DNA from: a virus
Length of the DNA stretch: 37,813 bases
Direction: 5' to 3' (one strand)
Virus record (IMG/VR): IMGVR_UViG_3300042507_002672
Below, one piece after another: positions 2,494 to 37,813 of the stretch (the first letter of the stretch is position 1; the number at the start of each line of letters is the position of its first letter). A program made the translations under genes and the position numbers. The notes beneath the pieces are model-generated. The model was given only the letters and a program-made list of their open reading frames with translations, made no database searches and was not told where the DNA came from.

Positions 2494-3362
2494 TACGCGG
2501 TTTCCTTCTTTGCTTTGAGTTCCTTGATCGTGCATCCACGACCGTCTTTGACGATTTCGATTCCGTGGCCGTAACCGCGGCGCATGTCGGGTTCCATGAG
2601 GGCCTTCAGATCCTTTGCGGCCTTCTCAAATTCCTTGGCTTGGTCGCGGAGCATCAGCCAATCCGAGGCGCGGACAGCCCATGTGTTATTGGCGCGCATA
2701 TCAACGTCTCGGGTCGGCGGAACGAGTTCCGGCGCGTTGATGGTCTTGGCCGTGTCAATCTCGATATCCATCACGACATGGTTCCAGAACACTTGTTCGA
2801 CCTTGATAAGGTGGGCGATGTAATCCTCGTCGCGCTCGACCTTGCGCCATTCGTGGCGATCCGAGCCGATGAAAACCGAGAGGTAGCAAGCCTGCGCGCC
2901 GTAGACGGCCATGTTGTGCTGTAGCTGGGGGAAGTAGCGCACCAAGGCATCATCGAACTTGGTGAACGAGTTGCAGTGCTTGCATTCCACAATGTCGATG
3001 GCGTCGTTATCGCCACCCGTGAACCCGTCGATATTGGCGCGCATGAACGCATGTTCGGGGTGGATGTGAGTGCCACCAGGCAGGACCGGCTTGCCGATGG
3101 CGTAGGAAAGCCACAGGCGGTTAAGAGGTTCGGTCCATGAGCCCATCTGGACAGGCAGAACCTTCGTCAGATCGTCGGACGCCTGCCGGCCAAGCTTCTC
3201 AAGGCGCAGAACTTCCAGTTCCTCGCGCACGCCCTTTGCGATTTTCACCGCGTCCGAGCCGCCGACGCCCAGCGCGCGGGCTGAGTGCCAGTCCGGCCCG
3301 TGGTCCAGTAGACCCCCCGCTTCCATATCCCCGATGTGCATGTTCATTTCCTTCTGTTTCAT
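2493..3362 (-). CDS. YqaJ/lambda-Exo-type recombination exonuclease (PD-(D/E)XK)
   Basis: GVGGSDA near the N-terminus, D...VECKH, and QLQHNMAV. This is the typical YqaJ viral recombinase exonuclease motif order. It sits directly upstream of the annealase. Confidence 0.85.
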   Translation of the reverse strand: MKQKEMNMHIGDMEAGGLLDHGPDWHSARALGVGGSDAVKIAKGVREELEVLRLEKLGRQASDDLTKVLPVQMGSWTEPLNRLWLSYAIGKPVLPGGTHIHPEHAFMRANIDGFTGGDNDAIDIVECKHCNSFTKFDDALVRYFPQLQHNMAVYGAQACYLSVFIGSDRHEWRKVERDEDYIAHLIKVEQVFWNHVVMDIEIDTAKTINAPELVPPTRDVDMRANNTWAVRASDWLMLRDQAKEFEKAAKDLKALMEPDMRRGYGHGIEIVKDGRGCTIKELKAKKETA

Positions 3363-6323: not shown

Positions 6324-6454
6324 CCGTCATCCAATGGATTTATGCCGATCAAGTCGATGCGTATCTGTCTCAAGGATGGATCGTAACCAAGATGATGGCG
6401 CACCACGGCGCGCGTAAAGCAGGGCGCAATTTTATGGCGGTTATAGAGTTATGA
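6320..6454 (+). CDS. Hypothetical 44-aa protein
   Basis: MTVIQWIYADQVDAYLSQGWIV... has ATGA overlaps at both ends. Confidence 0.4.
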   Translation: MTVIQWIYADQVDAYLSQGWIVTKMMAHHGARKAGRNFMAVIEL

Positions 6455-7833
6455 AGTACTCAGATTTTCTGGCCGGCAAGGCAATTGTTGACCCCGACAC
6501 TGGAATAAAAAACCCCGTAGGCTTGTCTCCTCATTTGCGCGGGTTTCAGCGCGATATTACGAAGTGGGCACTACGTCGCGGCAGGGCTGCAATCTTTGCC
6601 GGCACGGGTCTTGGTAAGAGCTTCATGGAGTTGGAGTGGTGCAAGGCGGTCGCCGCCCACACTGGCAAGCCGTCACTGATCCTGACACCGCTCGCTGTCG
6701 CCGCTCAATTCGTGACAGAGGGCGAGAAGTGGGGAAACCCAGTAACGCACGCTCGCACTGGCGACGATATTCGTCCCGGCATTAACGTCACGAATTACGA
6801 AAAGCTTGAACACTTTGATATATCTCAATTCGGTGCCATCGTTCTGGATGAAAGCTCAATCCTTAAATCCTACGATGGCAAAACCCGTTCCCTTCTAATC
6901 AACACATGCAAGCAAGTTCCGTTCCGGCTGGCTGCGAGTGCAACCCCGGCGCCGAATGATTTTATGGAGCTTGGCAACCATGCCGAGTTCCTCGGTGTCA
7001 TGTCTTACACAGACATGCTCGCCACGTTCTTTATGCACGATTCGAGCGAGACGCAGACATGGCGCCTGCGTGGTCATGCCGAGCAACCGTTCTGGCGCTG
7101 GATGTGCTCATGGGCCGTAACCCTTCGTAAGCCTTCCGACCTTGGATATGAAAACGGAGGATACGACCTCCCGCCCCTAAACCAGATCGAACACCGCGTC
7201 GATGTTGCCTACGCCCCATCCCAGGATAGCGGGATGCTATTCCCGATGGAGGCACAGACCCTTTCAGAACGCCTCGGGGCGCGACGTGGGAGCATCAAGG
7301 AGCGCGTTGCTAAAGCCGCTGCTGTTACCCCATCCGACCGCCCGTTCGTGTGGTGGTGCAACCTCAATGCGGAAGCGGAGGCATTGTGCGCGGCTATTCC
7401 AGATGCCGTCGAAGTTCGTGGATCTGATAGCGAGCGCGAGAAGGAACGCAAACTAGCGGAGTTCGCAGCTGGAAAAATCCGCGTACTTGTGACGAAGCCT
7501 TCTATCTGCGGGTGGGGCCTAAACTGGCAGCATTGCGCCGACACTGGATTTGTCGGCCTCTCCGATAGCTTTGAGCAAGTCTATCAGGCCATCCGTCGTT
7601 TCTGGCGCTTTGGGCAAACCAATCAAGTCACGGCGCACTTCATTGCCGCCGAAACCGAGGGCGCGGTAGTCGCCAATATCCGCCGCAAAGAACAACAGGC
7701 CGATCACATGGTCAGTTCGATGATTGACCATATGCGGGATTTGAACAGCGCGGCCATCGCGGGGACGACGAGAGACAAGGCTTCATATTTTCCGACAACC
7801 AAAATGGGGATGCCACAATGGATCGCAGCGTAG
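6451..7833 (+). CDS. SNF2/DEAD-like superfamily 2 helicase
   Basis: Walker A AGTGLGKS, DExx-type VLDESS, SATPAPN (motif III), and C-terminal helicase-domain motifs (QAIRRFWRFGQ). Confidence 0.85.
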   Translation: MKYSDFLAGKAIVDPDTGIKNPVGLSPHLRGFQRDITKWALRRGRAAIFAGTGLGKSFMELEWCKAVAAHTGKPSLILTPLAVAAQFVTEGEKWGNPVTHARTGDDIRPGINVTNYEKLEHFDISQFGAIVLDESSILKSYDGKTRSLLINTCKQVPFRLAASATPAPNDFMELGNHAEFLGVMSYTDMLATFFMHDSSETQTWRLRGHAEQPFWRWMCSWAVTLRKPSDLGYENGGYDLPPLNQIEHRVDVAYAPSQDSGMLFPMEAQTLSERLGARRGSIKERVAKAAAVTPSDRPFVWWCNLNAEAEALCAAIPDAVEVRGSDSEREKERKLAEFAAGKIRVLVTKPSICGWGLNWQHCADTGFVGLSDSFEQVYQAIRRFWRFGQTNQVTAHFIAAETEGAVVANIRRKEQQADHMVSSMIDHMRDLNSAAIAGTTRDKASYFPTTKMGMPQWIAA

Positions 7834-8795
7834 AGACAATCGACCAAGTTATAACATCTGACTACGCCATTTACCTTGGCGACAGTTGCGAGCTTTTGCA
7901 GGGTATCCCGTCCGACAGCATCGGGTTCGGGATTCACTCTCCGCCGTTTGAGGGGCTGTATAAATTCAGCAATTCAGAACGCGACGTTTCAAACTCCGAA
8001 GGGCCGCAATTCTGGCAGCACTACGGGTTCATCATCTCTGAATTGCTCCGCGTGACAAAGCCGGGTCGCCTTCATTCGGTCCATTGCATGAACCTCCCCA
8101 CGTCGAAGATTAGGGACGGGTTCATTGGGATGCGTGACTTCCGCGGCGAAGTCGTGAGGGCTTACGAGGAAGCCGGCTGGCACATGCACTCGGAAGTGTG
8201 CATCTGGAAGGATCCCGTAGTCGCTCAGCAGCGCACAAAATCAATCCGGCTTTTGCACAAGCAAGTCGTAAAGGATTCGACGCTGTCAGGGCAGGGCCTT
8301 GCCGATTACATCGTGACGTTCCGCAAGCCAGGCGAGAACGCAGACCGTGTCTCGGGATGCTTCGACCAGTACATCGGGCCGGAAGATCAAGAACCCTCGA
8401 GGGCAAAGTACACATCCGAGATGGATGGCCGGAATTGGTACTCCATCGAAGTATGGCAGCGTTACGCATCTCCGGTCTGGATGGATATTCGCCAGGGCCG
8501 CGTTCTGCCGTTCCGGGGCGGTCGAGACGAAGATGATGAAGTCCACATCTCACCGCTGCAGCTCGATGTTATCGAGCGTTGCATCGACCTTTGGAGCAAC
8601 CCCGGCGATACCGTTATTACCCCGTTTATGGGTGTTGGTTCTGAGGTCTATTGCGCCGTTCAGATGGGCCGCAAGGGGCTTGGGATCGAACTGAAGCCAA
8701 GCTACTTCCGGCAAGCCGTCGAGAACGTAGCCAATGCCAGCGCGAGTAAAAACGATATGCCGTTGTTCGCGGTGATTAATGGGGGCGCGGCATGA
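7818..8795 (+). CDS. Beta-class exocyclic-amino DNA methyltransferase (N4-C or N6-A)
   Basis: Catalytic motif IV HSPPF lies near the N-terminus. The AdoMet motif I VITPFMGVGSE lies near the C-terminus. This IV-then-I order defines the beta class. Confidence 0.85.
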   Translation: MDRSVETIDQVITSDYAIYLGDSCELLQGIPSDSIGFGIHSPPFEGLYKFSNSERDVSNSEGPQFWQHYGFIISELLRVTKPGRLHSVHCMNLPTSKIRDGFIGMRDFRGEVVRAYEEAGWHMHSEVCIWKDPVVAQQRTKSIRLLHKQVVKDSTLSGQGLADYIVTFRKPGENADRVSGCFDQYIGPEDQEPSRAKYTSEMDGRNWYSIEVWQRYASPVWMDIRQGRVLPFRGGRDEDDEVHISPLQLDVIERCIDLWSNPGDTVITPFMGVGSEVYCAVQMGRKGLGIELKPSYFRQAVENVANASASKNDMPLFAVINGGAA

Positions 8796-8983
8796 CACCC
8801 GCACTATGCAAGCGCGCCGAGCGTGCCGTTACTTACGCTAATGGGTCCGCCGCTCGTCACAAGGCATCATTGCGTAAACGCCGAGAGGCTCAACGTCTTG
8901 TCGCCCTGTGTCTCGTCCAAGAGATCAGGTCAAAAGGCGGATACGTTCCGAGGAAGATCGAAACCGTACTGAGGGGGAACTAA
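8792..8983 (+). CDS. Hypothetical protein (63 aa)
   Basis: ORF track, with an ATGA overlap upstream. Confidence 0.5.
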   Translation: MTPALCKRAERAVTYANGSAARHKASLRKRREAQRLVALCLVQEIRSKGGYVPRKIETVLRGN

Positions 8984-9264
8984 TGCCAAACATCAGCAGA
9001 GGCCGCGCCGCGCTTACATGGTACGCGGATCGTGAAAAGAGGGCCGAACTAAAGGACGCAGAGAAAGCCGCTAAGTCGGCCCAAAATAAGGGCCTACAGC
9101 GCAAGTCCATGAAGTACCCAGGCTCATACACTGAGCATGAAAGAGAAGTCCTGCGGGCTTATTATTCGACGTTGGGGGCCGATCTACTGGCCGAGCGCCT
9201 TGGACGTACCCCGGCAAGTGTCGGGACCGAGGCCAATAGCATGGGCCTGAGGTTTGGCAAATGA
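8983..9264 (+). CDS. Hypothetical protein, possible HTH (93 aa)
   Basis: Start at MPNISRGR (taatg overlap). The C-terminal EREVLRAYYSTLGADLLAERLGRTPASV looks HTH-like. Confidence 0.55.
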   Translation: MPNISRGRAALTWYADREKRAELKDAEKAAKSAQNKGLQRKSMKYPGSYTEHEREVLRAYYSTLGADLLAERLGRTPASVGTEANSMGLRFGK

Positions 9265-9536
9265 TCGGCCCCGTATCTCGGATCATGGAAGAAGTCGCGC
9301 GCAAGCACGGGCTTACCATCGAGGACCTAAAGAAGCGCACCACCAGCCCGCGCTACGCCTGGCCGCGTCAGGAGGTGATGTACCGCTGCGTCACCGAAAC
9401 CAAGGCACCGTATCGCACCATTGCGGCTGCGCTTGGACTGAAGGATCACAAATCAGTGGTGGTTGGCGTACCACTCCACGCGGAGCGGCTTGTGTGGCTT
9501 ACCAAGATGACCAGCCAGTTATCCCCACTGCGCTGA
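9261..9536 (+). CDS. DnaA domain IV-like DNA-binding protein (91 aa)
   Basis: HGLTIEDLKKRTTSPRYAWPRQEVMYRCVTETKAPYRTIAAALGLKDHKSVV follows the DnaA C-terminal pattern (...R...A.PRQ.AMY....T..S...IG...G.RDHSTV). Confidence 0.6.
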   Translation: MIGPVSRIMEEVARKHGLTIEDLKKRTTSPRYAWPRQEVMYRCVTETKAPYRTIAAALGLKDHKSVVVGVPLHAERLVWLTKMTSQLSPLR

Positions 9537-9605
9537 GATATCCACAGGAAAGACTATTTTACTTCAACGTCCTGTAGGGCATCCTAATGCGCGAGGTGAA
9601 CACAA

Positions 9606-10571
9606 ATGGCACGACCTGACACATGGATGCCGATGTACTGGCGAGACTTCTGGGCGGATACCGGCCACCTGTCACCCGTTGAAGGATGGGCCTACATCAA
9701 CCTGATTGGTGCTTACTGGACCATTGGAGGCCCGCTAGAGAACGATGACGCTCGACTTGCTAGGCAGGCCAAGGTCAGCCCGAAGGAATGGAAGGCGGCG
9801 CGTCCTGCCGTTATCGCGTTCTTTTCCGTGGATGACAAACTGATCCATCAGAAGCGGATTGACGCCGAGCTTGCCGTAGCCGTAGCCAGACACGCAGCTA
9901 AGGTCAAAGCAGGGACAAACGGAGCGCAAAAGAGATGGCAAAACGATAGCAGAGCTATAGCAGACCCATCTCTCAGCCATAAGCAAACCGATGCACAACT
10001 ACAACCACACTCATCTAACGATGAGACAGAAGCTAAAGCTTCTGTGGCGCAAGCGCCCAAATCCACGAAAGGAACTCGTCTTGCAAACGATTGGAAACCT
10101 AGTGAAGCAGATCGAACCTATGGCCGTAAACTCGGATACGCAGATACGGAGTTCGACGCGGAGTGCGGAGAGTTTAGAGCCTATTTCACAGGGCCAAACG
10201 CCACCAAGCCGGTCAAAAAATGTTGGGCTAGTGCCCTTGAACGATGGCTTCGCGAAAACGCCAGCCGCCGTTTTGCGAAGCGCAATCGCCCAGGACAGTC
10301 CGGCGGAAACAAACGCGGCCCTGGAAGCATACTTGCCGCGCTCGGTTCGGTCTTGGATCGACAGGACGGAAACTCGCGAGACGTGGGAGAAGTTGCCGAA
10401 AATGCGCCAGTATTTACCGGAGCCGACGCGCCCGGAACCTCTGCCGCAGGACGAGCATCAGAAGGCTTTGGCGGCGGTGAAGGCAACGTTATCAACGGTG
10501 AATGGAGCCGAGTGCAGGAAGCTCCTAGCGGAGATGAAATACCTCACGCGGCAGCGGGCGGAATCTACTGA
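9606..10571 (+). CDS. DUF1376/YdaU-like phage replication protein (3' end uncertain)
   Basis: The N-terminal WMPMYWRDFWADTGHLSPVEGWAYINLIGAYW is the DUF1376 signature. The C-terminal third overlaps another plausible frame (see findings). Confidence 0.75.
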   Translation: MARPDTWMPMYWRDFWADTGHLSPVEGWAYINLIGAYWTIGGPLENDDARLARQAKVSPKEWKAARPAVIAFFSVDDKLIHQKRIDAELAVAVARHAAKVKAGTNGAQKRWQNDSRAIADPSLSHKQTDAQLQPHSSNDETEAKASVAQAPKSTKGTRLANDWKPSEADRTYGRKLGYADTEFDAECGEFRAYFTGPNATKPVKKCWASALERWLRENASRRFAKRNRPGQSGGNKRGPGSILAALGSVLDRQDGNSRDVGEVAENAPVFTGADAPGTSAAGRASEGFGGGEGNVINGEWSRVQEAPSGDEIPHAAAGGIY

Positions 10572-13841: not shown

Positions 13842-14102
13842 ATGGCAGCGCGTAAGACCAAGGGCACAAAAGACATACCGTGGCCCGAAGCTACGAGAGA
13901 GCGCATCCGCGCCAGTATGCTTGAAAAAGAGCTTATGAAACATGTACTTGGCCAGCGCGATATGACGCCAACGCAATTTGGCGCGGCTAAGGCGCTACTG
14001 AACAAGGTTCTCCCCGACCTGACAGAGAACGAAACGCGCATCTCGGGTGAAATAATTATCGAGCGCAGGTATTTTGGCTCAAAGAATCCAAATCCCAAAT
14101 AA
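13842..14102 (+). CDS. Candidate small terminase subunit (86 aa)
   Basis: Called from its position immediately upstream of, and overlapping, the large terminase gene. It is small and basic with an HTH-like middle. No diagnostic motif. Confidence 0.4.
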   Translation: MAARKTKGTKDIPWPEATRERIRASMLEKELMKHVLGQRDMTPTQFGAAKALLNKVLPDLTENETRISGEIIIERRYFGSKNPNPK

Positions 14103-15444
14103 GTGGGAACCGCGTGAGTACCAATTACCGCTGTGGTCTGCCCTTGAGGACGGCTGCAAGCGCGCCCTGTACACGTGGCATCGCCGCGCTGGCAAGGACG
14201 ACATAGGGCTTCACTTCACCGCGACCGAGGTGATCGAGAAGCCCGGCGTCTACTGGTACATGCTTCCCGAAGCCGCGCAGGCCCGTAAGGCGATCTGGAA
14301 GGCTATCGACCCCCACACTGGCCTGCGACGTATTGATTGGGCTTTCCCTCCCGAGATTCGGGCAAGTACCAACGACACGGAAATGTTCATCAACTTCAAG
14401 AGCGGCGCAACGTGGCAAGTCGTGGGCTCTGATAACTACAACAGCCTGGTGGGATCGCCTCCCCGCGGCGTGGTGTTCTCTGAGTGGGCCTTAGCCAATC
14501 CTGCGGCATGGGCCTACATCCGGCCTATCCTGAGAGAAAACGGCGGATGGGCGCTGTTCAACTTCACGCCCCGAGGTCGCAACCATGCCGTTACCATGTA
14601 CGAGGCGCACAAGGACGACCCCGACTGGTTCATTCAGAAGCTTACAGCCAAGCAAACCGGGGCCATGACCGACGAAGAATTGGCTAAGGAACTGCTGGAT
14701 TATCAATCTGACTTTGGCGAGGAAGATGGGGAATCGAAGTTCCGCCAGGAATACCTATGCGACTTCGACGCTCCTTTGGTCGGGGCTTACTACGCCAAGA
14801 TTATCAGCAAGCTCGAAGATGCCGGCCAAATCCGCGATGTGCCTTACGACAAGCACAAGCCCGTTTACACCGCCTGGGACATCGGCCGCACGGATGACGC
14901 CGCAGTGTGGTTCTACCAGATCATCAACCGCGAAATTCACGTCATTGACTACTTTGCCAAGCCGGGCGGGGACGTGCCCGAGTTCGCCGCCATGCTGCAA
15001 GAGAAGAAATACATCTACGGCAAGCACACGCTCCCCCATGACGGCCGGCATAAAACATTCGCGGCGCCGCGCTCTGTATTCGAGCAGCTCGGGGAGTTCG
15101 TGGGCTTGGCGTCGGTCGGCATCTGCCCCGACCATCATCGGATTGATGGTATCGCCGCGGTTCGTGCTATACTGCCGAGGTGCTGGTTTGACGCCAAGCG
15201 ATGCAAGCAAGGGCTAGAAGCCTTGCGGCAATACCAGCGGAAATGGGACGACGAACGTAAGGTGTTCTCTCCTGATCCGCTGCATAATTGGGCGTCTCAT
15301 GCGTCCGATGCCTTCCGCTATATGGCTGTGGCGTTCAAGGAAGAAAACCCGACTGCGTTTAAATCCTCCACGTTCCGCCAGCCCACGCTTAACGAAGCAT
15401 GGGAGAGGCAGGAGCGTTTCGGGCATGACGAGGCGCGGATATGA
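14074..15444 (+). CDS. terL: Terminase large subunit
   Basis: N-terminal ATPase region (WHRRAGKDD Walker-A-like). C-terminal RNaseH-like nuclease motifs (YTAWDIGRTDDAAVWFYQ, PHDG, ASDAFRY). The start is non-ATG (TTG) and approximate. Confidence 0.9.
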   Translation: MAQRIQIPNKWEPREYQLPLWSALEDGCKRALYTWHRRAGKDDIGLHFTATEVIEKPGVYWYMLPEAAQARKAIWKAIDPHTGLRRIDWAFPPEIRASTNDTEMFINFKSGATWQVVGSDNYNSLVGSPPRGVVFSEWALANPAAWAYIRPILRENGGWALFNFTPRGRNHAVTMYEAHKDDPDWFIQKLTAKQTGAMTDEELAKELLDYQSDFGEEDGESKFRQEYLCDFDAPLVGAYYAKIISKLEDAGQIRDVPYDKHKPVYTAWDIGRTDDAAVWFYQIINREIHVIDYFAKPGGDVPEFAAMLQEKKYIYGKHTLPHDGRHKTFAAPRSVFEQLGEFVGLASVGICPDHHRIDGIAAVRAILPRCWFDAKRCKQGLEALRQYQRKWDDERKVFSPDPLHNWASHASDAFRYMAVAFKEENPTAFKSSTFRQPTLNEAWERQERFGHDEARI

Positions 15445-17534
15445 GAGACAAAGGCACTCCCAAAGACCAGGGCACGGCGTCCTCGGTCATTGCCGAGATT
15501 GAGGCTTACGAAAAGCAATTCGAGCCTTGGCTTAAACGTGGCTCTGAAATCGTCAAACGCTACCGCGACGAGCGCGTTACCACGTCGAACGCCACGATCA
15601 TCACCCGGAAATACAATATCCTGTGGTCGAACGTTGAGACGCTTCGGCCTACGCTCTACGCCCGTATCCCTCAGGTCCAGGTGGAGCGCCGGTTCAAGGA
15701 CGCCGACCCCGTTGGCCGTGTTGCCTGCCAGATTGCAGAGCGCGCCGGCAACTACCTACTTCAGACCGGCCCATTCGGGACCATCCTTGGGAACTGCGTT
15801 GAGGACTACCTTCTCCCCGGTCGTGGGGTGATGTGGATTCACTACGACGCGGAGGGCGAAGATGTACCCAAGGAGGGATACGAGGCCGAGGACGGGGAAG
15901 AACCCGAGACGGAGTTTAAGAAGCTACAGGAGACAATCACCCCGACCTATGTGGATTGGCGGGACTTCGGCCATCAGCCTAAGCGCCACTGGCAGGAGAA
16001 CAAGCTGGTATGGCGTCGGACATACCTCACGCGCGCTGAGTTAATTAAACGCTTTGGGAAAACGCTTGGAGAGCAGATCAACCTAGACCGCACTCCCAAA
16101 GAGGACGGCAAGGCTGACGAAGTCGTAGCGCAGGCCACGATCTACGAAGTCTGGGACAAGAAGCGCGGCAAGGTCTGCTGGGTCCACCGGGATATGGTGG
16201 ATTATCTGGATGAGATCGACCCGCCCATTAATTTGGAATCGTTCTGGCCGTGCGCCGATCCTCTCACCGCCACGATGACCAACGGCACGCTCATCCCGGT
16301 TGCCGATTATCTGCTTTATCAGGATCAAGCCCAAGAGCTAGACAAGCTCACCAATCGCATTGGGAGGCTGACAGACGCGCTTAAGGTTGTCGGGGTCTAC
16401 AACGCCAGCGTCCCCGAGCTTTCGCGCCTGCTGAGCCCCAATGGCACGCCTGACAACGTTATGATTCCGGTCGCGGATTGGGCGGTGCTGAGTGAAAAGG
16501 GCGGACTTTCGCGCGGGGTCGAGTTTATTCCCCTGGTTGATATCGTCAACGCGCTGGGCCAGGCTTATCAAGCCCGTGAGCAAGTCCTAAACGTGATTTA
16601 CCAAATCACCGGCATCTCGGACCTCTTGCGCGGCGCGTCAGATCCACGTGAAACGGCCACGGCTCAGGGCATCAAGGGGCAGTACGGATCAACCCGCATC
16701 AAAGCCCGTCAGGCCAAGGTTGCGACGTTTGCCCGCGACAACGCCCGCATCGTTGTGGAAATCGCGGTGGAGATGTTCGAGCCCCAAACCCTGTGGGAAA
16801 TGACGAACGCCAAGTCATTCTGCCAGATCAACCCCGAGGCCCAGGCGGCACTTCAGCAAATGGGCGGGGAGCCGCAGTTTACCGACAGCCAAGAGTTTAT
16901 GCAGGCTCTCAGCCTGTTGCGGAATGACAAACTCCGCTCGTTCCATGTGGATATTGAGACTGACAGCACGATTGCTCTTGACGAGGCCGAGGATAAGGCC
17001 GCGACCGTGGAGTTTATCGGCGCCGTGGGGAATTTCCTCGGGACGTTCGGCCCTATCGTCCAGCAGCAGCCAGCCCTCGCCCCGCTTGCCGGCGAGATGC
17101 TTATGTACGCCGCCCGTAGGTTTAAGGCAGGACGCGCGCTGGAAGCGTCGATTGAGAAAGCTGTGGCCGGTATTGCCCAAGCCGCGGCTCAGCCCCAGGC
17201 CCCGCCCGCGCCCCCGCCTGAAGCCGTTATGAAGGCCGAAGCCGAGAAGTACGCCGTTGACGCCAAAACCCGCACCGAAGCCGAGAAGATCGCCGCCGAT
17301 AAGGAACTTGGGACGAATAAGATTATTAGCGAACGGGAAGCGGCCCGCGAGAAGCTCGACCTTGAAAAGCGCATTGCAGCCGAGAAACTTCGACTTGAGC
17401 AAGAGGCTCTGGACGTTGAACGCCAAAAGGTCGCCATATCCTCCAAGGCTAATGATGACCGGCGCGATATCGAGATGAACAATGCCGACCAAGCCCTTCT
17501 GAAGGCCGCTGCGACAAAGATTGGAGGCCGTTGA
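15441..17534 (+). CDS. Portal protein (697 aa)
   Basis: Called from its size and its position directly after terL with an ATGA overlap. It has a long C-terminal Ala/Glu/Lys coiled-coil tail like the barrel of P22-type portals. Confidence 0.85.
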   Translation: MRDKGTPKDQGTASSVIAEIEAYEKQFEPWLKRGSEIVKRYRDERVTTSNATIITRKYNILWSNVETLRPTLYARIPQVQVERRFKDADPVGRVACQIAERAGNYLLQTGPFGTILGNCVEDYLLPGRGVMWIHYDAEGEDVPKEGYEAEDGEEPETEFKKLQETITPTYVDWRDFGHQPKRHWQENKLVWRRTYLTRAELIKRFGKTLGEQINLDRTPKEDGKADEVVAQATIYEVWDKKRGKVCWVHRDMVDYLDEIDPPINLESFWPCADPLTATMTNGTLIPVADYLLYQDQAQELDKLTNRIGRLTDALKVVGVYNASVPELSRLLSPNGTPDNVMIPVADWAVLSEKGGLSRGVEFIPLVDIVNALGQAYQAREQVLNVIYQITGISDLLRGASDPRETATAQGIKGQYGSTRIKARQAKVATFARDNARIVVEIAVEMFEPQTLWEMTNAKSFCQINPEAQAALQQMGGEPQFTDSQEFMQALSLLRNDKLRSFHVDIETDSTIALDEAEDKAATVEFIGAVGNFLGTFGPIVQQQPALAPLAGEMLMYAARRFKAGRALEASIEKAVAGIAQAAAQPQAPPAPPPEAVMKAEAEKYAVDAKTRTEAEKIAADKELGTNKIISEREAAREKLDLEKRIAAEKLRLEQEALDVERQKVAISSKANDDRRDIEMNNADQALLKAAATKIGGR

Positions 17535-17613
17535 ATATGCGCCTTCTCATTCTTCTGGCGTGCTCCGACTACTAGATGTTGACACACGCAGAAAAACAAG
17601 CAGCGTAATCCCG

Positions 17614-17958
17614 ATGACTGAAAGTTACGGATACTACCGAGGCGTTGGTGGTTATTGGGTGTGGAGCGGCAAGAAGCCCTACGAAGGCACTTGCGTTCAT
17701 GTTCCCGGCCCCAAGCTTAACGCCACAAAAGACGGCGGTATTCAGGTCATCAAAGATATTGAGCCTTACCGGAACATGATCGACGGCAAGGTAATCGGCG
17801 GGCGCAGGCAGCATCGTGATTTTCTTCGCGCCAATGGCTGTATCGAAGTCGGCAACGAGCAGCCAAAGCCGAGAGTAGAAGGCCCGCGTAAACGAGACAA
17901 AGACCTCGTGTTGCAGCTAAAGGCCGCGGCACGGTCACATGGAGTTGATTGGGTATGA
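17614..17958 (+). CDS. Hypothetical head-module protein (114 aa)
   Basis: Start at MTESYGYY within track ORF 17521..17958. It has an ATGA overlap with the scaffold gene. Confidence 0.6.
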   Translation: MTESYGYYRGVGGYWVWSGKKPYEGTCVHVPGPKLNATKDGGIQVIKDIEPYRNMIDGKVIGGRRQHRDFLRANGCIEVGNEQPKPRVEGPRKRDKDLVLQLKAAARSHGVDWV

Positions 17959-19034
17959 CTGAAGAGCTTCAGGCTCAAGTTACCGACCAAGTTGATGCGC
18001 CGGTTATTGAGACACCAGAGGTCGAAAAGCCGGACCCTAACGACCTCCGCGCGGTAATCGAGCACGCGCAGAAAGAGGTAGAGAGCCGCCCCCGTGATGA
18101 GACGGGCAAGTTTACACAAAAGCCGCAGGCCGCTCAAAGCGCCGCGATAGATCCGAAAAGCCCTTTAGGGGCGCCGGCTGTTGCCGAGGTTAAAACCCTC
18201 GAAGCTCCAGCCACATGGAAGGCCGAGGAAAAGGCATTTTGGGCGACACTTTCTGACCAAGCGAAGTCTACGATCCTTCGCCGGGAAAAGGAATTTGCTC
18301 AAGGTATCCAATCCAAGGCCGATGAAGCGAAGCAGGCCAGAGCAGTTGCCGAGGCGCTCGAACCCGTTATTGGACCTCACCGCCAGAATTTGATGCAGGC
18401 GGGTAGCGTAGAGCAGGGGATTAAAAACCTCCTTGATACGTCTACTTACGCCGCCAAAGACCCGGTGGGGTTCATTCAGTGGTTCGCGCAAAGCAAAGGC
18501 ATTGACCTAGGGAACATGCAGCAGCCGACCGGGGATCAAAACCCCGAAGTGGCCCAGCTCAAGCAGTCCCTCTACGGACTTCAAAGCGAGATAGCCGAAC
18601 TCAAGGGTTACACGACCCAGCAGCAGACGCGCACTGTAGTTTCCGAGATACAAGCCTTTGCCGACGAGAAGGACCAAAGCGGGCAAGCTCTGCGTCCACA
18701 TTTCGAAAGCGTGAGGAAAGAGGTTTACGAGCTTATTCCGCTCATCAAGAGCACAAACCCCGATTGGAGCGTTCGTCAGGTCATGGACGCGGCTTATTCC
18801 AAAGCCGTTCGCTTGAATGACGATGTTTTCGGGAAAGTGCAAAGCGAGCAGGCGGAAAAGGCCCGTTTAGCCAAGGAAGCAGCCGACCGCGCGCAGAAGG
18901 CCAGTCTAGCTAGGAAGTCCCTCACCGGCGGCTCTCCTGTTGGGGATTCCCAGCAGAAGCCCGCCAAAAACCAATCGGTGCGGGACGCTATCAAATTAGC
19001 CATGCAGGAGCATGGGGTAGACGCCCGCCTCTGA
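17955..19034 (+). CDS. Scaffolding protein (candidate)
   Basis: It lies between the portal and capsid genes. It is acidic, Ala/Glu/Gln/Lys-rich and predicted helical. GGAG lies 10 nt upstream of the ATG at 17955. Confidence 0.65.
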   Translation: MTEELQAQVTDQVDAPVIETPEVEKPDPNDLRAVIEHAQKEVESRPRDETGKFTQKPQAAQSAAIDPKSPLGAPAVAEVKTLEAPATWKAEEKAFWATLSDQAKSTILRREKEFAQGIQSKADEAKQARAVAEALEPVIGPHRQNLMQAGSVEQGIKNLLDTSTYAAKDPVGFIQWFAQSKGIDLGNMQQPTGDQNPEVAQLKQSLYGLQSEIAELKGYTTQQQTRTVVSEIQAFADEKDQSGQALRPHFESVRKEVYELIPLIKSTNPDWSVRQVMDAAYSKAVRLNDDVFGKVQSEQAEKARLAKEAADRAQKASLARKSLTGGSPVGDSQQKPAKNQSVRDAIKLAMQEHGVDARL

Positions 19035-19049
19035 AAAAGGCGTAAATAA

Positions 19050-20012
19050 ATGGCTTCTCCGAATACCTCATTTACGGAAATCGTCACTACGACGCTCCGT
19101 AACCGTTCCGGGGTCCTCGCGGACAACGTTTCGGAAAACAACGCGATCCTCCGTCGCCTGAACAAGAAGGGCAAGATCAAGACCGTCTCTGGCGGTCGCA
19201 CGATTGTTCAAGAACTCGAATACGACGAGAACGGGACATACACCCGTTACACCGGCTACGAGACGTTGGACATTTCGCCGTCTGACGTGTTCTCGGCTGC
19301 TGAGTTCAACTACAAACAAGCCGCGGTCGCAGTGACCATCTCCGGCTTGGAAGAACTTCAGAACTCCGGCCCGAACGCCATCATCGACCTCTTGGAAAGC
19401 CGGATCGGCAACGCCGAGCGGACGATGAAGAACAACATCTCTGCCGATATGTACTCGGACGGGACGGCTTCGGATTCCAAGCAGATCGGCGGTCTTCAGC
19501 TTCTCGTGGCTGACTCTCCGACCGCGGGCACTGTTGGCGGCATCGCTGCTTCCAATGCCTTTTGGCAGAACCGCCAGGCTGCGGCCGGTACGGCTGCCGC
19601 TGGTTCCATCGTTGGAGCCATGAACGATATGTACACCAATCTCGTTCGCGGCAACGACGCGCCCGACCTCATCATCGCTGATAACAACTTTTACAACCGT
19701 TATCTGCGTGAACTCCAGATCATCCAGCGCATCACTTCGGATGAGATGGCGCAGGCCGGCTTTACGGCGCTCAAGTACATGAACTCCGATCTTGTCCTCG
19801 ACGGCGGTGTCGGCGGCAACTGCCCCACCAATCACATGTACTTCCTCAACACGAACTACCTGTTCTGGCGCCCCCACGCGTCCAGAAACATGGTTCCGAT
19901 TGGGGATGAGCGCTTCTCCGTCAACCAGGACGCCATGGTCAAGCTGATCGGCTGGGCCGGCAACATGACTATTGCAAACCGACGCCTTCAGGGCGTCCTC
20001 ACCGCAGCTTAA
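19050..20012 (+). CDS. Major capsid protein (320 aa)
   Basis: Called from its position after the scaffold gene, its size, and an N-terminus (TSFTEIVTTTLRNRSG..ADNVS.NNAILRRL) resembling capsid proteins of BPP-1-like podoviruses. This is recognition from memory, not a search. Confidence 0.8.
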   Translation: MASPNTSFTEIVTTTLRNRSGVLADNVSENNAILRRLNKKGKIKTVSGGRTIVQELEYDENGTYTRYTGYETLDISPSDVFSAAEFNYKQAAVAVTISGLEELQNSGPNAIIDLLESRIGNAERTMKNNISADMYSDGTASDSKQIGGLQLLVADSPTAGTVGGIAASNAFWQNRQAAAGTAAAGSIVGAMNDMYTNLVRGNDAPDLIIADNNFYNRYLRELQIIQRITSDEMAQAGFTALKYMNSDLVLDGGVGGNCPTNHMYFLNTNYLFWRPHASRNMVPIGDERFSVNQDAMVKLIGWAGNMTIANRRLQGVLTAA

Positions 20013-24723: not shown

Positions 24724-26523
24724 ATGTGCTTCGGCAGTGCTCCTAGACCGCCCGACCCCGTAGCGACGGCCCAAGCGCAGAGCGGGATCAATCGCGCTGA
24801 CCTCGGCTATGCTGCTGGGCTCAATCAAATCAATCAGACCGGGCCGTTCGGTTCTGTATCGTATTCGGGTGAGATTGGTTCGCCCAATCGCACACAGACC
24901 ACGACCCTTACGCCTGAGATGCAAGCCATCCTCAATGGGCAAACCCAGCTTACAGGGGGGCTCACAGACCTTGCTAACCAGCGGCTTGCCGGCGCTCCGC
25001 GATCAAACTTCACGCTTGATGGGCAGCCCGATGTGCGTCGTGCTCAGGGGGTGACGTTTGGCACGTCCTTTAATCAAGGCCCTGCGGTTCAGAACACATT
25101 CGACCAAGGCCCTGCACTTCGCAACGAATTCGATCAAGGCCAGGCCGTTCAGACCAGTTTCAATAACGGCGGCGCGTTACAGCGCGGGTTTGACAACGGC
25201 GGCGCGCTTCAGCGCGACATTCAGGCCGGAGCGATAACTGATAGGTTCGACGCTGGCGGTCAGGCCCAGCGCAGCGTTGACCTTAGTGGCCAGCCGGCGC
25301 TCAACACAGACTTTTCCAAGCTTTCGCAGCAAGCCCAAGAAGCCGCGTATCGTCAAAATACAAAATACCTTGATCCTCAGTTTGCACAGCAGGAGCAGGC
25401 AACCCGCGCACGGTTGGCCGCGCAGGGCGTTACCGAGGGCTCCCAGGCGTACAATCAAGAAATGGCTAACCTTGCCCAGCAACGGGACCAGTCATACTCT
25501 GGCGCGCGGGATCAGGCCATTAATCAGGGGTTCAACCTTGAAGGCCAAATGTTTGGCCAAAACCTTGCCGCGAGACAGCAGGGCGTCGGAGAGCAATTCC
25601 AACTTGGTGAGTTTGGCAACAGTTCGCTTGCTCAGCAGTTCGGCATGAACCAAGCCCAAGCTCAGTTCCAGAACCAAGCTCAGAATCAGGGCTTTGGTCA
25701 GAACCAAGCCCGAGCACAGCTTAATAACGACGCCGCAATGATGGACTACCAGCGCAACTTGGGCATGGCTGAGTTCGGCAACAACGCAGCGATGCAGGAC
25801 TACGCCCGCAATCAAGGGATGGCGCAATTCGGCAATCAAGCGGCTGGTCAGCAGTACAGCCAGAACCGCGGCTCTGCTGAGTTCGCCAACACCGCGGCCA
25901 ATCAGCAGTACGACCGCAACCGTGCGACGGCTCAGTTTGGAAACGACGCGGCTAGTCAGCAGTACGGGCAGAACCTTGGCGCGGCTCAGTTCGGCAACGA
26001 CGCATTGGCGCAACAGTTCAACGCCGGCCTTAACCTCCAGCAGGCCGACCAGTCGAACCGTTCTCAGTCGATCAACGAGAATATTTTGGGGCGTAACCAG
26101 AACATCAACGAGGCGATGGCCTTTGTTAATGGAGCCCCGGTATCGCCGCAGAACCCGACGTTCCAGCCGTTCGCCCAAAGCACGGCGGCACAGGCCGCGC
26201 CTGATGCGATTGGCTTGGCATCGGCTAACTACGGCAACCAGTCTGCGGCTCGCGCGCAAATCCTAGGCTCTATCTTTGGTTCTGCTGGCAAGATTGGTGG
26301 CGCGGCCATAGGAGCCTCTTGCTGGGTCGCGCGCGAAGTCTACGGCGTCGAGAATCCCAAGTGGGTCATCTTCCGCGAATGGATGCTGAACAAGTCTCCC
26401 AAGTGGTTCCGCGCGCTTTATCTGACCTACGGCGAGCGTTTCGCGGCGTGGATCAAAGACAAGCCGAAGCTCAAGACGATGATCCGCAATTGGATGGACG
26501 CGAGGATTGTTCATGCCTCGTAG
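24724..26523 (+). CDS. Gln/Asn/Gly-rich repeat protein, putative internal virion/ejection protein
   Basis: It lies after the tail tubular-like genes. It contains two families of tandem peptide repeats (see findings). The conserved-looking C-terminus is CWVAREVYGVENPKWVIFREWML. Confidence 0.6.
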   Translation: MCFGSAPRPPDPVATAQAQSGINRADLGYAAGLNQINQTGPFGSVSYSGEIGSPNRTQTTTLTPEMQAILNGQTQLTGGLTDLANQRLAGAPRSNFTLDGQPDVRRAQGVTFGTSFNQGPAVQNTFDQGPALRNEFDQGQAVQTSFNNGGALQRGFDNGGALQRDIQAGAITDRFDAGGQAQRSVDLSGQPALNTDFSKLSQQAQEAAYRQNTKYLDPQFAQQEQATRARLAAQGVTEGSQAYNQEMANLAQQRDQSYSGARDQAINQGFNLEGQMFGQNLAARQQGVGEQFQLGEFGNSSLAQQFGMNQAQAQFQNQAQNQGFGQNQARAQLNNDAAMMDYQRNLGMAEFGNNAAMQDYARNQGMAQFGNQAAGQQYSQNRGSAEFANTAANQQYDRNRATAQFGNDAASQQYGQNLGAAQFGNDALAQQFNAGLNLQQADQSNRSQSINENILGRNQNINEAMAFVNGAPVSPQNPTFQPFAQSTAAQAAPDAIGLASANYGNQSAARAQILGSIFGSAGKIGGAAIGASCWVAREVYGVENPKWVIFREWMLNKSPKWFRALYLTYGERFAAWIKDKPKLKTMIRNWMDARIVHAS

Positions 26524-35429: not shown

Positions 35430-36836
35430 TCATGCTGCGGGCCTTTCGATCTGATCCACCATTGTGATGCGCCGGCCAATCCAGGCCATCACGGGCACGG
35501 CCATTGAGTTCCCCAGCGCCTTGTAGCGAGGGCCATCAGCGGCCATGCCGTTGCGGTAAGGAATCAAAGTATAATCGTCAGGAAATCCCTGTAATCTTTC
35601 GCACTCCCGCGGTGTAAGGCGGCGCACGGCGGCTGATGTGGAAAGCATGGGCGTATTGCGCCCGCTTGCGTTGCTGTTCGTGTTCAAAGTGTTAAACACG
35701 TCCCCCGCGCGCACCTCGCCTGTCTGGTTTTGAGCAAAGGCCACGGCTTGCTGAATGCAGTCGCCCCCTTGTTGGTTGCCCCCGACAGGGCCACCCGCCA
35801 TGACAGGCTGCGCTACGTCCACGGCGCGTGCCTTGTAATCACGGCTCGAGTTCTGCGGCATGATCGACCACGCGACGTAGGTTTGCTCGACTTGGTTGCC
35901 GCCAGAGTTGGCGCCGAGGCTGTTCGACACTGCGACCTGGCGGATCTGCATTGCCATAGGACTGGCCCCGTTTACACCTGACCCAGCCGTCCCGATTGTC
36001 GCTGCAACCTCGCCAGTTATGATTCCGTTATAGCAGTCAACGCCAATCGTGACAGGCACAAGCGGCGTTCCCCGTCCCGTCCCATTTTCACTCGCGTCAA
36101 AGCCATCAGCGCGCAGGGAGTGGGTAACGAACGTCTCACTTTCACCGTCAATGCGACCGACGCCGCCCTTGGCGTTTAAAGCCCTAGCGATTAGATGACC
36201 GGCCTGAGCTTGGTTATCGTCCGCGCCGCATGTTCCAACGCCGTTTGCAGTGAGCGCGGCAACTCCCGGCCCCGCTTGGCGGCGCGGCGCAGTATCCCCG
36301 CGCAGGCTTTCGCGCTCAAAAAGAACCGCTGCGGCACGTCGCCAGTCTCCAAGGTGTCCGACAACGAACACACGGCGGCGGCGCTGGGCCACTCCGAAGT
36401 ACTGAGCGTCAAGCACTCGATAGGCGAACCCATACCCGAGTTCTGCCAAGCCCCCGAGGATGGAACCAAAGTCCCGTCCTCCGTTCGATGACAGTACACC
36501 GGGGACGTTCTCCCAAACCACCCATCGGGCGCGTGAGCGGCGAGCAAGTTGAAGAAACGCGAGGGCCAGGTTGCCACGCGCGTCGCCCAAGCCGCCCCGC
36601 AATCCTGCGATCGAAAAGCTCTGGCAGGGGGTTCCGCCGACAAGAAGGTCAATTGGTTCATATTCGCCCTCGCGAATGGTGGTGAAGTCCCCATGCAACG
36701 GCACATCGGGATAGTGGTGCGCGAGGACCGCCCGCGGGAATTTGTCGATCTCGGAATAGAAGGCCGGCCGCCAGCCGAGCGGATGCCATGCGACCGTGGC
36801 CGCTTCGATGCCGGAACAGACTGAGCCGTACCGCAT
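35430..36836 (-). CDS. dcm: DNA (cytosine-5) methyltransferase with a long variable region
   Basis: Motif I-like SVCSGIEA, motif IV GGTPCQSFS, motif VI WENVPG, motif VIII QRRRRVFVVG, motif IX RRLTPRECERLQGFPDDYT and motif X GNSMAVPVM. About 240 aa lie between motifs VIII and IX. Confidence 0.9.
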   Translation of the reverse strand: MRYGSVCSGIEAATVAWHPLGWRPAFYSEIDKFPRAVLAHHYPDVPLHGDFTTIREGEYEPIDLLVGGTPCQSFSIAGLRGGLGDARGNLALAFLQLARRSRARWVVWENVPGVLSSNGGRDFGSILGGLAELGYGFAYRVLDAQYFGVAQRRRRVFVVGHLGDWRRAAAVLFERESLRGDTAPRRQAGPGVAALTANGVGTCGADDNQAQAGHLIARALNAKGGVGRIDGESETFVTHSLRADGFDASENGTGRGTPLVPVTIGVDCYNGIITGEVAATIGTAGSGVNGASPMAMQIRQVAVSNSLGANSGGNQVEQTYVAWSIMPQNSSRDYKARAVDVAQPVMAGGPVGGNQQGGDCIQQAVAFAQNQTGEVRAGDVFNTLNTNSNASGRNTPMLSTSAAVRRLTPRECERLQGFPDDYTLIPYRNGMAADGPRYKALGNSMAVPVMAWIGRRITMVDQIERPAA

Positions 36837-36911: not shown

Positions 36912-37226
36912 CTACGTCCCCGTGGGTGTGGGAGCGGGCTTCTCGGTGAGGAGGGCGAGGATGGCGTTGACTTCGTATTCAGTTCGCCTGTCTCTATCCA
37001 AACTTTCCGAATTGAACCAATCGACACGCGCTTGTTGTAATGCCGATTCGATCTGCTCCCGCGTGACCGTCTGTGCCTGGGGTGGCGTCTGACTGGCGCG
37101 GAGGTGGTCACGCAAAGCTCTGGCGACCGTTGCGTTTCTGCTCCACCCGCCAACTTGATGGTTTTCAGCGATCATTTCGTCGCACAGTTTCAGCAGTTCT
37201 TCTGCGGTCATACGTTCTTCGCTCAT
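36912..37226 (-). CDS. Hypothetical early protein (104 aa)
   Basis: Start at MSEERMTAEELL (ATGA overlap with the upstream stop) within track ORF 36912..37355. Confidence 0.6.
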   Translation of the reverse strand: MSEERMTAEELLKLCDEMIAENHQVGGWSRNATVARALRDHLRASQTPPQAQTVTREQIESALQQARVDWFNSESLDRDRRTEYEVNAILALLTEKPAPTPTGT

Positions 37227-37504
37227 GTGGTCACCGTGAAGGGATGGAGGGCTTCGTCCATATCGGGAAGTAACTGCGTCAGGCCGGGGTGTCCGCCCAG
37301 TATCCAGCCCTTTTCGGTACGGCACGCGCGCACCTTGGCGAGCGTTTCGGCGCACTTAACCAGGGCACGAATAATATCTGTGTCCGACGTGTACTCGCTC
37401 AGGTCGTCCATATAGCGCGTGCTGCCTGAGCGAAGGTCGCAGGCTTCCTCGTATGCTTTCTCAGCCGCTTCTTTCAGGGCCTTCAGGTCAATACGTTCAG
37501 TCAT
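37223..37504 (-). CDS. Hypothetical early protein (93 aa)
   Basis: ORF track. GAAGGGA lies upstream of the ATG, which is 19 nt after the stop of the repeat ORF. Confidence 0.6.
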   Translation of the reverse strand: MTERIDLKALKEAAEKAYEEACDLRSGSTRYMDDLSEYTSDTDIIRALVKCAETLAKVRACRTEKGWILGGHPGLTQLLPDMDEALHPFTVTT

Positions 37505-37523
37505 TTGTCGTGTCCCTTCGTGG

Positions 37524-37813
37524 TTAGCCGTCGCCGTAGCCGGAGCCGTAGCCGGAGCCGGAGCCGTAGCCGGAGCCGTAGCCGTCGCCGTAGCCGTCGC
37601 CGTCGCCGTAGCCGGAGCCGGAGCCGTAGCCGGAGCCGTAGCCGTCGCCGTCGCCGTAGCCGGAGCCGGAGCCGTAGCCGTAGCCGTAGCCGGAGCCGTA
37701 GCCGGAGCCGTAGCCGTCGCCGTAGCCGTCGCCGTCGCCGTAGCCGGAGCCGGAGCCGTAGCCGGAGCCGTAGCCGTCGCCGTAGCCGTCGCCGTCGCCG
37801 TAGCCGGAGCCGG
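37524..37813 (-). CDS. C-terminal part of the (Gly-X)n repeat protein (enters from the window end; stop TAA at 37526..37524)
   Basis: The minus-strand frame reads GGC-TAC/GGC-TCC/GGC-GAC throughout and ends ...G-Y-G-D-G-stop. It is the same frame as 1..153 once the 86-nt terminal overlap is merged. Confidence 0.5.
   Translation of the reverse strand, partial: GSGYGDGDGYGDGYGSGYGSGSGYGDGDGYGDGYGSGYGSGYGYGYGSGSGYGDGDGYGSGYGSGSGYGDGDGYGDGYGSGYGSGSGYGSGYGDG
37530..37813. repeat. Tandem hexanucleotide array (47 perfect units plus 2 nt) of gtcgcc, gtagcc and ggagcc
   Basis: Direct reading gives unit order DYSYSSYSYDY DDYSSYSYD DYSSYYYSYSY DY DDYSSYSYDY DDYS(gg). The 60-nt super-unit DDYSSYSYDY recurs. 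Confidence 0.95.

Follow-up and report, generated by a model that had tools for sequence, protein, structure and literature searches.

This study concerns a short open reading frame (ORF) in the viral IMG/VR record IMGVR_UViG_3300042507_002672, a stretch of 37,813 nt (hereafter the window) with an array of hexanucleotides at both of its ends. On the minus strand the array reads as glycine alternating with tyrosine, serine or aspartate, and the ORF and its product are here called Gly-X. The ORF is divided between the two window ends, and its start codon overlaps the termination codon of an upstream gene of the Pfam family DUF6948, creating the following arrangement.

153..524, minus strand: DUF6948 gene, 123 amino acids (aa), predicted Sm/LSm-like fold, its stop codon overlapping the Gly-X start
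1..153, minus strand: 5' part of the Gly-X ORF, with the ATG at 153..151, the leader at 153..133 and 22 units at 132..1
37524..37813, minus strand: 3' part of the Gly-X ORF, with 47 units plus 2 nt at 37813..37530, the last Gly codon at 37529..37527 and the TAA at 37526..37524
37223..37504, minus strand: 93-aa gene without a family match, next after Gly-X, with the ribosome-binding site GAAGGGA at 37519..37513
37728..37813 identical to 1..86, no strand: terminal direct identity, an assembly overlap inside the repeat; the 26-nt identity of 37788..37813 with 1..26 is also exact

A preliminary description, drawn up from the letters of the window, had held that the array consists only of the units gtcgcc, gtagcc and ggagcc, and a direct check found no variant unit among the 22 units at 1..132 and the 47 units at 37530..37811, with 2 nt extra beyond the 47 units at the right end. 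TRF reports a period of 6, with 21.8 copies at the left end and 48.0 copies at the right end. The minus-strand reading of the units as GGC-GAC, GGC-TAC and GGC-TCC was reproduced, as were the single base shared by the Gly-X ATG (153..151) and the TGA of the upstream gene (155..153) in the arrangement TGATG, the leader MEPKIYD, the terminus ...GYGDG-TAA with its stop at 37526..37524, and the position of the next minus-strand ATG (37504), 19 nt past that stop and preceded by GAAGGGA at 37519..37513. The frame is lost when the window ends are simply abutted, as had been claimed, and merging the identical 86-nt ends gives an in-frame product of 118 aa, for which recomputation returned the same 56 Gly, 26 Tyr, 18 Ser and 13 Asp. 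This product, MEPKIYD followed by 55 Gly-X units and a last Gly before TAA, is about 11 kDa, with about 12% acidic residues, an isoelectric point (pI) of 4.05 and a net charge of -13.5. Each Tyr of the array lies in a GYG context, and the array contains no Ala, Gln or Asn. The disorder that had been proposed for the polymer is compatible with an AlphaFold2 prediction for the array alone, which has a predicted local distance difference test (pLDDT) score of 32. In contrast, the 60-nt super-repeat of the preliminary description holds only approximately, with the autocorrelation of the X string peaking at lags 10, 22 and 24. A second Gly-X protein was not found in the window.

As had been pointed out, the window array leaves five of its six frames open. 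A further feature, missed at that stage, is an (Ala-Thr/Ala-Pro)n frame that begins with an ATG at 137..135 (minus strand) and has no stop through 37813..37223, into the 93-aa gene. This open frame looks accidental, with VT/VP or AM/AL found instead at other loci.

The question of whether the array is a gene was addressed with its relatives, for which the upstream DUF6948 gene (153..524) served as anchor. In a profile scan, IMG/VR yielded more than 561 DUF6948 loci and a one-genome-per-species collection yielded 112, and the survey covered the best 80 of each scan and nine loci fetched earlier, comprising IMG/VR contigs, metagenome-assembled genomes (MAGs), isolate genomes and cultured phages. 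An ORF with a short leader and a (G-X)n array, starting on or next to the DUF6948 stop codon and ending right past the array, is present at 146 of the 157 informative loci (76 of 83 in IMG/VR, and 70 of 74 among genomes and MAGs); 119 of these ORFs are complete, and a contig end truncates the other 27. Four of the 11 array-less loci have a degenerate Gly/aromatic/acidic ORF at the same place, such as the version in L016, where strict alternation is lost and the Gly/aromatic/acidic composition is kept. The offset of the Gly-X start from the DUF6948 stop is mostly -13, -4, -17, -11, -8 or -1 nt, the last being that of the window. For the IMG/VR and cultured-phage set, 66 of 76 Gly-X ORFs start with ATG, the median length is 84 aa (range 32-137), and the X residues are Ser (37%), Tyr (27%) and Asp (24%); Ala makes up 1.7% of X residues family-wide.

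For instance, three IMG/VR relatives with a DUF6948 protein about 50% identical to that of the window carry a leader, a (G-[Y/S/D])n array and a stop directly after it, written with GGT-TAC/GAC/TCC in two contigs and with GGC-TAT/TCT/GAT in the third. Related leaders occur in close relatives of the window's phage, namely MASPKIYD, MGPKIHD, MTGPKIY and VTVPKTYD. The window ORF has the two features that define the family, namely a start on the DUF6948 stop, and a leader followed by Gly-X dipeptides only and then a stop. Thus, the central claim of the preliminary description, that the array is translated into a pure, acidic and aromatic Gly-X polymer, is borne out by relatives that keep the frame, the start on the upstream stop and the stop past the array, and that differ in codons. 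Judged by this comparison of loci, the reading of the window array as a protein-coding gene is strongly supported. The survey also shows, at the level of gene arrangement, that the Gly-X gene follows DUF6948 as the second member of a conserved two-gene module, and that this module is conserved in phages and prophage-like contigs whose assignments cover many bacterial phyla. Two other searches added little: an IMG/VR search via the downstream 93-aa protein gave no relatives, and a nucleotide search of the right end of the window against cultured phages gave only a methyltransferase match.

A programmed frameshift from DUF6948 into the array was considered and rejected. The frame relation of the two ORFs is not constant (+2 in about 48, +1 in about 26 and 0 in 2 of the IMG/VR loci), and therefore a conserved frameshift is not indicated and coupling through the overlap is the simpler explanation. 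A number of variations on the module were also seen in the survey. Two or more Gly-X ORFs stand in tandem around the DUF6948 gene in L020, L028, L039 and L061, with three successive "MKNDG.GNANG..." copies in L028. His- or Cys-rich arrays occur (L039, L068 and P0074), and the minor X residues include His, Cys, Asn and Glu. In the 99 complete ORFs, Asp and Glu make up 30% of the C-terminal third versus 23% of the first third, the acidic content rising in 59 loci and falling in 34; the trend is a weak fit to the idea of an acidic tip, as found in Hfq (see below).

The codons of the window array are exclusively GGC, TAC, TCC and GAC, as had been described. The long ORFs of the window use these codons at 49% (GGC), 66% (TAC), 19% (TCC) and 58% (GAC), and with genome codon usage so uniform an array would be expected with a probability of about 1e-38. 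Seventeen codon sets are found across the IMG/VR and cultured-phage loci, with GGC, GGT, GGG or GGA for Gly, TAC or TAT for Tyr, GAC or GAT for Asp, and TCC, TCT, TCG, TCA, AGC or AGT for Ser, that is, codons of both the TCN and AGY types. The other frames differ by locus (AT/AP, VT/VP, AM/AL, LR and so on), and the +2 frame is interrupted by stops in 17 of 76 arrays. Asn, His, Phe and Cys each account for at most 2.5% of X, although they are a single step from TAC, as are Ser and Asp. From TAC, His and Cys are reached by transitions, and Ser and Asp by transversions. Mutation alone would therefore seem insufficient to account for the composition of X.

Nearly codon-uniform arrays make up 90 of the 146. 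In 19 arrays the Gly codons are mixed (entropy of at least 0.8 bit), yet Gly still makes up 46% and Gly-X coverage is 82%; these arrays have therefore gathered synonymous changes without losing the Gly periodicity. The preliminary description had asked whether the unit number varies in multiples of 6 nt among related phages, and near-identical phages do vary in 6-nt steps, with identical flanks. In the case of the locus of P0125, four assemblies with an identical partner protein and identical flanks have called ORFs of 37, 43, 47 and 53 aa, with differences of 12 and 18 nt. Uniform codons within an array, together with variation in units between phages, thus point to concerted evolution under selection at the protein level. 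The codon uniformity, formerly put down to an array that is either very young or constrained at the DNA level, is resolved as continual turnover. The sequence comparisons indicate that the arrays evolve in concert, by slippage or unequal exchange, with selection for composition and Gly spacing.

Such turnover also explains why many contigs, the window included, begin and end in the array. Contigs end there because assemblers break in a repeat that is longer than the k-mer, as for the 27 of 146 arrays that are cut by a contig end (for example L012-L014, L018, L019, L031, L042, L055, L077, L090, L091 and L101). Assemblies break systematically at the array, which can also mimic circularity via spurious terminal overlaps; recurrent breaks and spurious "circular" overlaps in the assembly of such phage genomes are explained by it. 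The 86-nt "circular overlap" of the window is likewise a property of the repeat and no proof of a junction. An alternative overlap of 26 nt between suffix and prefix is equally valid and gives an in-frame ORF of 138 aa, and the window assembly leaves the number of Gly-X units unfixed (86-nt versus 26-nt overlap). No verbatim match to either merged product, of 118 aa or of 138 aa, is present in the protein collection. Independent assemblies of the window's phage (DUF6948 protein 100% identical) end inside the array or differ in unit order, and a JGI (Joint Genome Institute) contig crosses the whole array, with the 118-aa ORF, 19 nt and then the 93-aa gene. Short-read assemblers can collapse such arrays, and unit counts are indicative only. 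Comparable arrays lie inside finished phage genomes and long-read assemblies (L139 and L113).

The carriers of the module include cultured phages of Pectobacterium, Ralstonia, Iodobacter and Vibrio. The copies in NK-7, phiPLPE, Taid and CV-1-33 lie in the same place after DUF6948, with the same leader-(G-[S/Y/D])n-stop organisation and the same kind of hexanucleotide array. Cultured carriers, namely NK-7, phiPLPE, Taid and its relatives, IKEMa6-1 and CV-1-33, are recorded as follows.

Ralstonia phage NK-7, XCO36015: annotated "fibroin heavy chain-like protein"
Pectobacterium phage Taid (XDF89792) and six relatives: annotated "hypothetical protein"
Vibrio phage IKEMa6-1: record without annotation
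Iodobacter phage phiPLPE, EU876853 46046-46255 (L005 1173..1409): 78-aa Gly-X ORF, unannotated, directly after gp84
Chlorobiaceae phage CV-1-33 gene_25, MT192033 (L007 2764..3030): deposited coding sequence in the wrong frame (MAMAMALAM...)

In CV-1-33 the Gly-X frame is open, with an ATG that overlaps the end of the DUF6948 gene, and it reads MDGINYGYGDGDGSG... with Lys, Asn and Glu variants. The repeat of phiPLPE, (KMGCCG)35, has been read as a possible attachment (att) site (PMC3391216, Table 3 and text). The gp84 of this phage is a DUF6948 protein, and the att-site reading is here corrected to a Gly-X ORF behind a DUF6948 gene.

The array is not confined to the stand-alone form. A protein search with the Gly-X product gave 422 matches, and in all of the best 120 of these (P0001-P0120), which were the ones examined, the array adjoins another domain. 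Fused (G-[Y/S/D/N])n arrays are found N- or C-terminal to DUF7666, to "FWRS..PANGG..LHAT" and "IKSxNG" domains and to TIGR02996-like N-terminal domains. DUF6948 is also among the fusion partners, with DUF6948 followed by Gly-X in P0016, and an N-terminal domain followed by Gly-X and then DUF6948 in P0077. In L094, a relative of the window's phage, the gene next after Gly-X encodes DUF7666. These architectures mark the Gly-X array as a portable module, which recurs, among other uses, as a free-standing ORF behind DUF6948.

When four Gly-X proteins were searched against Pfam and PHROGs, no family emerged, only a sub-threshold, low-complexity match to TrAA12, and a search of the literature on DUF6948, DUF7666 or Gly-X polypeptides found no paper. 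The window ORF belongs to a family that already exists but is undescribed, and the Gly-X/DUF6948 pair is widespread, missed or mis-annotated. There is a real chance that the Gly-X gene is something without precedent. Such genes represent an annotation blind spot, as low-complexity genes are masked, mis-framed or lost at contig ends, and a whole conserved family can be hidden in this way. They also represent a clean natural case of selection at the level of composition, where residues and Gly periodicity are constant across phyla and the DNA is rebuilt fast.

The partner encoded upstream in the window belongs to Pfam PF22253 (DUF6948), scoring 99.6 bits against a cut-off of 27 (E 1.1e-28). The family has 2,823 representatives at 50% identity, and two of the homologues, P0241 and P0263, have two DUF6948 domains in tandem (216 aa each). 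An AlphaFold2 model built with 68 sequences (pLDDT 87.6, predicted TM-score 0.73) has five long bent strands, as well as helices at either end and in the loop that joins strands 3 and 4. When this model was compared with the PDB by Foldseek, all top matches were archaeal or eukaryotic Sm/LSm proteins (E 3e-4 to 2e-3, target TM 0.65-0.74), and in BFVD the first matches were DUF6948 proteins, followed by entries named "Sm-like domain" and "RNA binding protein". An Sm/LSm-like fold is thus predicted for DUF6948. Among its conserved residues are R40, H47, R65, R66, W68 and W70, and the core is basic, with a pI of 9.5 and a charge of +3.9, opposite to the -13.5 of the Gly-X product.

In the window, the pair lies in a leftward operon in the order YqaJ, ERF, SSB, unknown, DUF968/HNH, DUF6948, Gly-X, followed by two unknowns and a C5 methyltransferase. 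Genes of this block that are not listed above include the following.

2493..3362, minus strand: YqaJ-like exonuclease, leftward operon, upstream of Gly-X
1837..2535, minus strand: ERF annealing protein, leftward operon
1436..1825, minus strand: SSB with its own DDVPF tip, leftward operon
948..1439, minus strand: 163-aa ORF without assignment, leftward operon
529..951, minus strand: DUF968/HNH, leftward operon, directly before DUF6948
35430..36836, minus strand: C-5 cytosine DNA methyltransferase, further downstream in the same leftward block

Recombination or replication genes are also near the module in phiPLPE, Taid, CV-1-33, L093 and L100, and the downstream 93-aa gene is not conserved beside the module in relatives. 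Elsewhere in the window, the plus strand encodes a helicase, a primosomal/replication-initiation protein, TerL, a portal and a major head protein (6451..10571 and 14074..20012), as well as a second DNA methyltransferase (7818..8795). The ten largest plus-strand ORFs of the window yielded no integrase. TRF reports two further tandem repeats, at 25075..25153 (period 30, 2.6 copies) and at 25848..26003 (period 54, 2.9 copies), both in a 599-aa ORF on the plus strand (24724..26523).

The synteny with DUF6948 (about 93%), the overlapping start and stop codons and the occasional fusions together indicate a shared function of Gly-X and DUF6948. By analogy with tailed Sm-fold proteins, we propose that the Gly-X polypeptide may be a separately encoded low-complexity tail of a phage Sm-like protein, a proposal whose chances of being right or wrong we judge to be about equal. 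Here, the overlap of stop and start codons would lead to translational coupling and hence to co-production of DUF6948 and Gly-X. DUF6948 would act as an Sm/LSm-like, basic, Arg/Trp-rich protein that binds nucleic acid, and Gly-X would be its low-complexity tail, supplied in trans. The Tyr and Asp residues of Gly-X could make multivalent contacts with the conserved Arg/aromatic surface of DUF6948 and with each other. In doing so, Gly-X might tune the binding of RNA or single-stranded DNA (ssDNA) by DUF6948 through competition, like an acidic nucleic-acid mimic, and/or bring DUF6948 into assemblies of higher order or condensate-like bodies. All of this would take place early in infection, beside the recombination and replication genes. 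The Gly-rich, acidic-tipped C-terminal domains of Hfq and the low-complexity tails of eukaryotic Sm/LSm proteins probably act in the same manner, the difference here being that the tail has a gene of its own. More tentatively, and with a lower expectation of being correct, the free Gly-X polypeptide and the Sm-like protein (and, in other phages, further array-tagged proteins) might form a condensate-like compartment, or a nucleic-acid-mimicking regulator, in early replication, recombination or RNA metabolism. If true, this would be a prokaryotic and viral parallel to the low-complexity assemblies of eukaryotic Sm/LSm proteins, with a function carried by composition alone and DNA that is rebuilt by slippage. 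Any of the roles suggested in the preliminary description, a condensate scaffold, a mimic or decoy, or a substrate for modification, may apply.

Several points count against a role as a tail in trans. Gly-X arrays also occur on unrelated domains (DUF7666, "FWRS..PANGG..LHAT" and others) and hence are not specific to DUF6948, and the module may perhaps have a more generic role. Covalent fusions of DUF6948 and Gly-X are rare, with 0 of 268 among the DUF6948 homologues listed, and in the window the two are separate ORFs in different frames, so that the tail is not covalent. The fold of DUF6948 is a prediction, and its E-values in Foldseek, at 3e-4 and weaker, are moderate; DUF6948 matches no Sm, LSm or Hfq sequence family, Pfam giving DUF6948 only, and a DUF6948 profile search of solved structures gave no match at E up to 1. 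The C-terminal acidic gradient is weak and not seen in the window array, and the loci from which it was calculated are not phylogenetically independent. Finally, we found no experiment on any member, and we infer translation, disorder, DUF6948 binding and effects on nucleic acids.

Of the other explanations, the one that survives best, though we regard it as unlikely, is that Gly-X is an independent anti-host effector. It would be a decoy, or a flexible, acidic and aromatic molecule that imitates single-stranded nucleic acid, and would titrate a host nuclease, a defence sensor or a protein that interacts with SSB, with DUF6948 only a co-expressed helper or unrelated. The location of the gene in an early operon beside the exonuclease, Erf and SSB, the acidic and Tyr-rich product, the fast change in array length and order that is common at arms-race loci, and the presence of the same module on many other domains would all be in keeping with such an effector. 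In T7 gp2.5 and in SSB, acidic tails with aromatic residues compete with ssDNA, which can be counted in favour of the same explanation. On the other hand, the composition of Gly-X is kept across very different phyla, as would be expected of a general physicochemical role or of a target shared by all hosts more than of a host-specific one, and an effector acting alone is not expected from the roughly 93% synteny with DUF6948, the overlapping start and stop, and the fusions. In addition, acidic residues make up just about 12% of the product and no folded mimic surface is predicted. With a pLDDT of 32 and no family match, Gly-X does not fall into the class of folded DNA mimics (Ocr, ArdA and Gam).

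A structural or chelating polymer is less probable again. Here, Gly-X would stack into silk- or amyloid-like beta-sheets, or serve as a metal sponge via its Asp, Tyr, Ser, His and Cys residues. The strict dipeptide period is fibroin-like, and the NK-7 copy has been auto-annotated as "fibroin heavy chain-like"; likewise, His, Cys, Asn and Glu are among the minor X residues and some arrays are His- or Cys-rich. Yet Ala, the residue that drives the formation of fibroin sheets, is nearly absent (1.7%), and Asp, at about a quarter of X, disfavours sheet packing. Degenerate versions such as that of L016 keep the composition without the alternation, as is typical of disordered low-complexity regions, and there is neither a signal peptide nor a structure predicted by AlphaFold2. 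RTX-type calcium repeats were also considered, and were set aside in view of a period of 2 rather than 9 and the absence of GG.

It is very improbable that the array acts as DNA, be it an att site, a packaging or terminal repeat, a recombination hotspot or a protein-binding satellite, with the ORF incidental. Such a reading could draw on the published att speculation for phiPLPE (PMC3391216), on the frequent ending of contigs in the array and on the five of six frames that are open across the window array. The contig ends are explained by a repeat longer than the k-mer, however, and the other frames give peptides that differ between loci, often with stops. Moreover, the DNA motif is not conserved (GGCTAC, GGTTAC, GGCTAT, GGGTAC and GGA..AGC..., among 17 codon sets), whereas the residues, the start overlap and the stop are, and the ten largest plus-strand ORFs of the window do not include an integrase. 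The DNA satellite or genome end that the preliminary description had offered as an alternative is thus unsupported, as the motif varies while the encoded residues are conserved. Least credible of all is an assembly artefact, or a true frame of (Ala-Thr/Ala-Pro)n that forms an N-terminal extension of the 93-aa protein, for although the array lies at both contig ends with two overlaps possible, and the Ala-Thr frame runs from the ATG at 137..135 into 37504..37223 without a stop, like arrays lie inside more than 100 independent contigs (finished genomes and the long-read assemblies among them), the alternative frame is VT/VP or AM/AL at other loci, and the downstream gene is not conserved beside the module.

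The module can be compared with several known systems. The resemblance to the silk fibroin heavy chain, (GAGAGS/GAGAGY)n, is one of composition only, as both alternate Gly with an X that includes Ser and Tyr. Fibroin is secreted, very large and forms crystalline sheets, and its X is mainly Ala with almost no Asp; in contrast, the window array has no Ala, Asp is 24% of X family-wide, and X is not dominated by Ala and Ser. A further comparison is with the [G/S]Y[G/S] domains of the FUS family, which are poor in charge, with Tyr "stickers" between Gly/Ser "spacers", and for which phase separation has been demonstrated. The [G/S]Y[G/S] motif is present at each Tyr of the array, and disorder is predicted, but the Tyr density is about twice that of FUS, there is no Gln or Asn, Asp is at about 12%, and the period of 2 is strict. 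Unlike FUS, the Gly-X product is only about 11 kDa and has no folded domain.

For the partner, the first family of phage proteins with an LSm-like fold, T4 GoF/MotB.1/Frd.2, was reported in 2025 (PMC12152347). Like them, DUF6948 is an early phage protein for which an LSm-like fold is predicted and an RNA-related role suspected, but it belongs to an unrelated sequence family, and no Gly-X partner has been described for the T4 proteins.

Tails on Sm-fold proteins are themselves well known. SmB, SmD1, SmD3 and LSm4 carry RG/RGG dipeptide-repeat tails for assembly or for condensate targeting, and Gly-X would be a further case of a Gly-X dipeptide-repeat, low-complexity tail for an Sm-fold protein. 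The eukaryotic Sm tails are basic (Gly-Arg), covalent and methylated, whereas the Gly-X tail would be acidic, aromatic and separately encoded. In bacteria, the C-terminal domain of Escherichia coli Hfq ends in an acidic tip. For Acinetobacter baumannii Hfq, GGFGGQ repeats and an acidic tip are needed for RNA binding and autoregulation, and the number of C-terminal repeats matters for RNA binding, autoregulation and fitness (PMC11617691). Unlike in Hfq, the extension proposed here is a separate gene that is rarely fused, its repeat is G-X and not GGFGGQ, and the DUF6948 core is without sequence similarity to Hfq, its Sm fold being predicted only. What the two would have in common is an Sm-fold core with a long extension that is rich in Gly and aromatic residues, repetitive, disordered and acidic. 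If Gly-X is indeed such a tail in trans, the DUF6948/Gly-X pair would offer a tractable two-gene system for the regulation of nucleic-acid chaperones or condensates by low-complexity tails.

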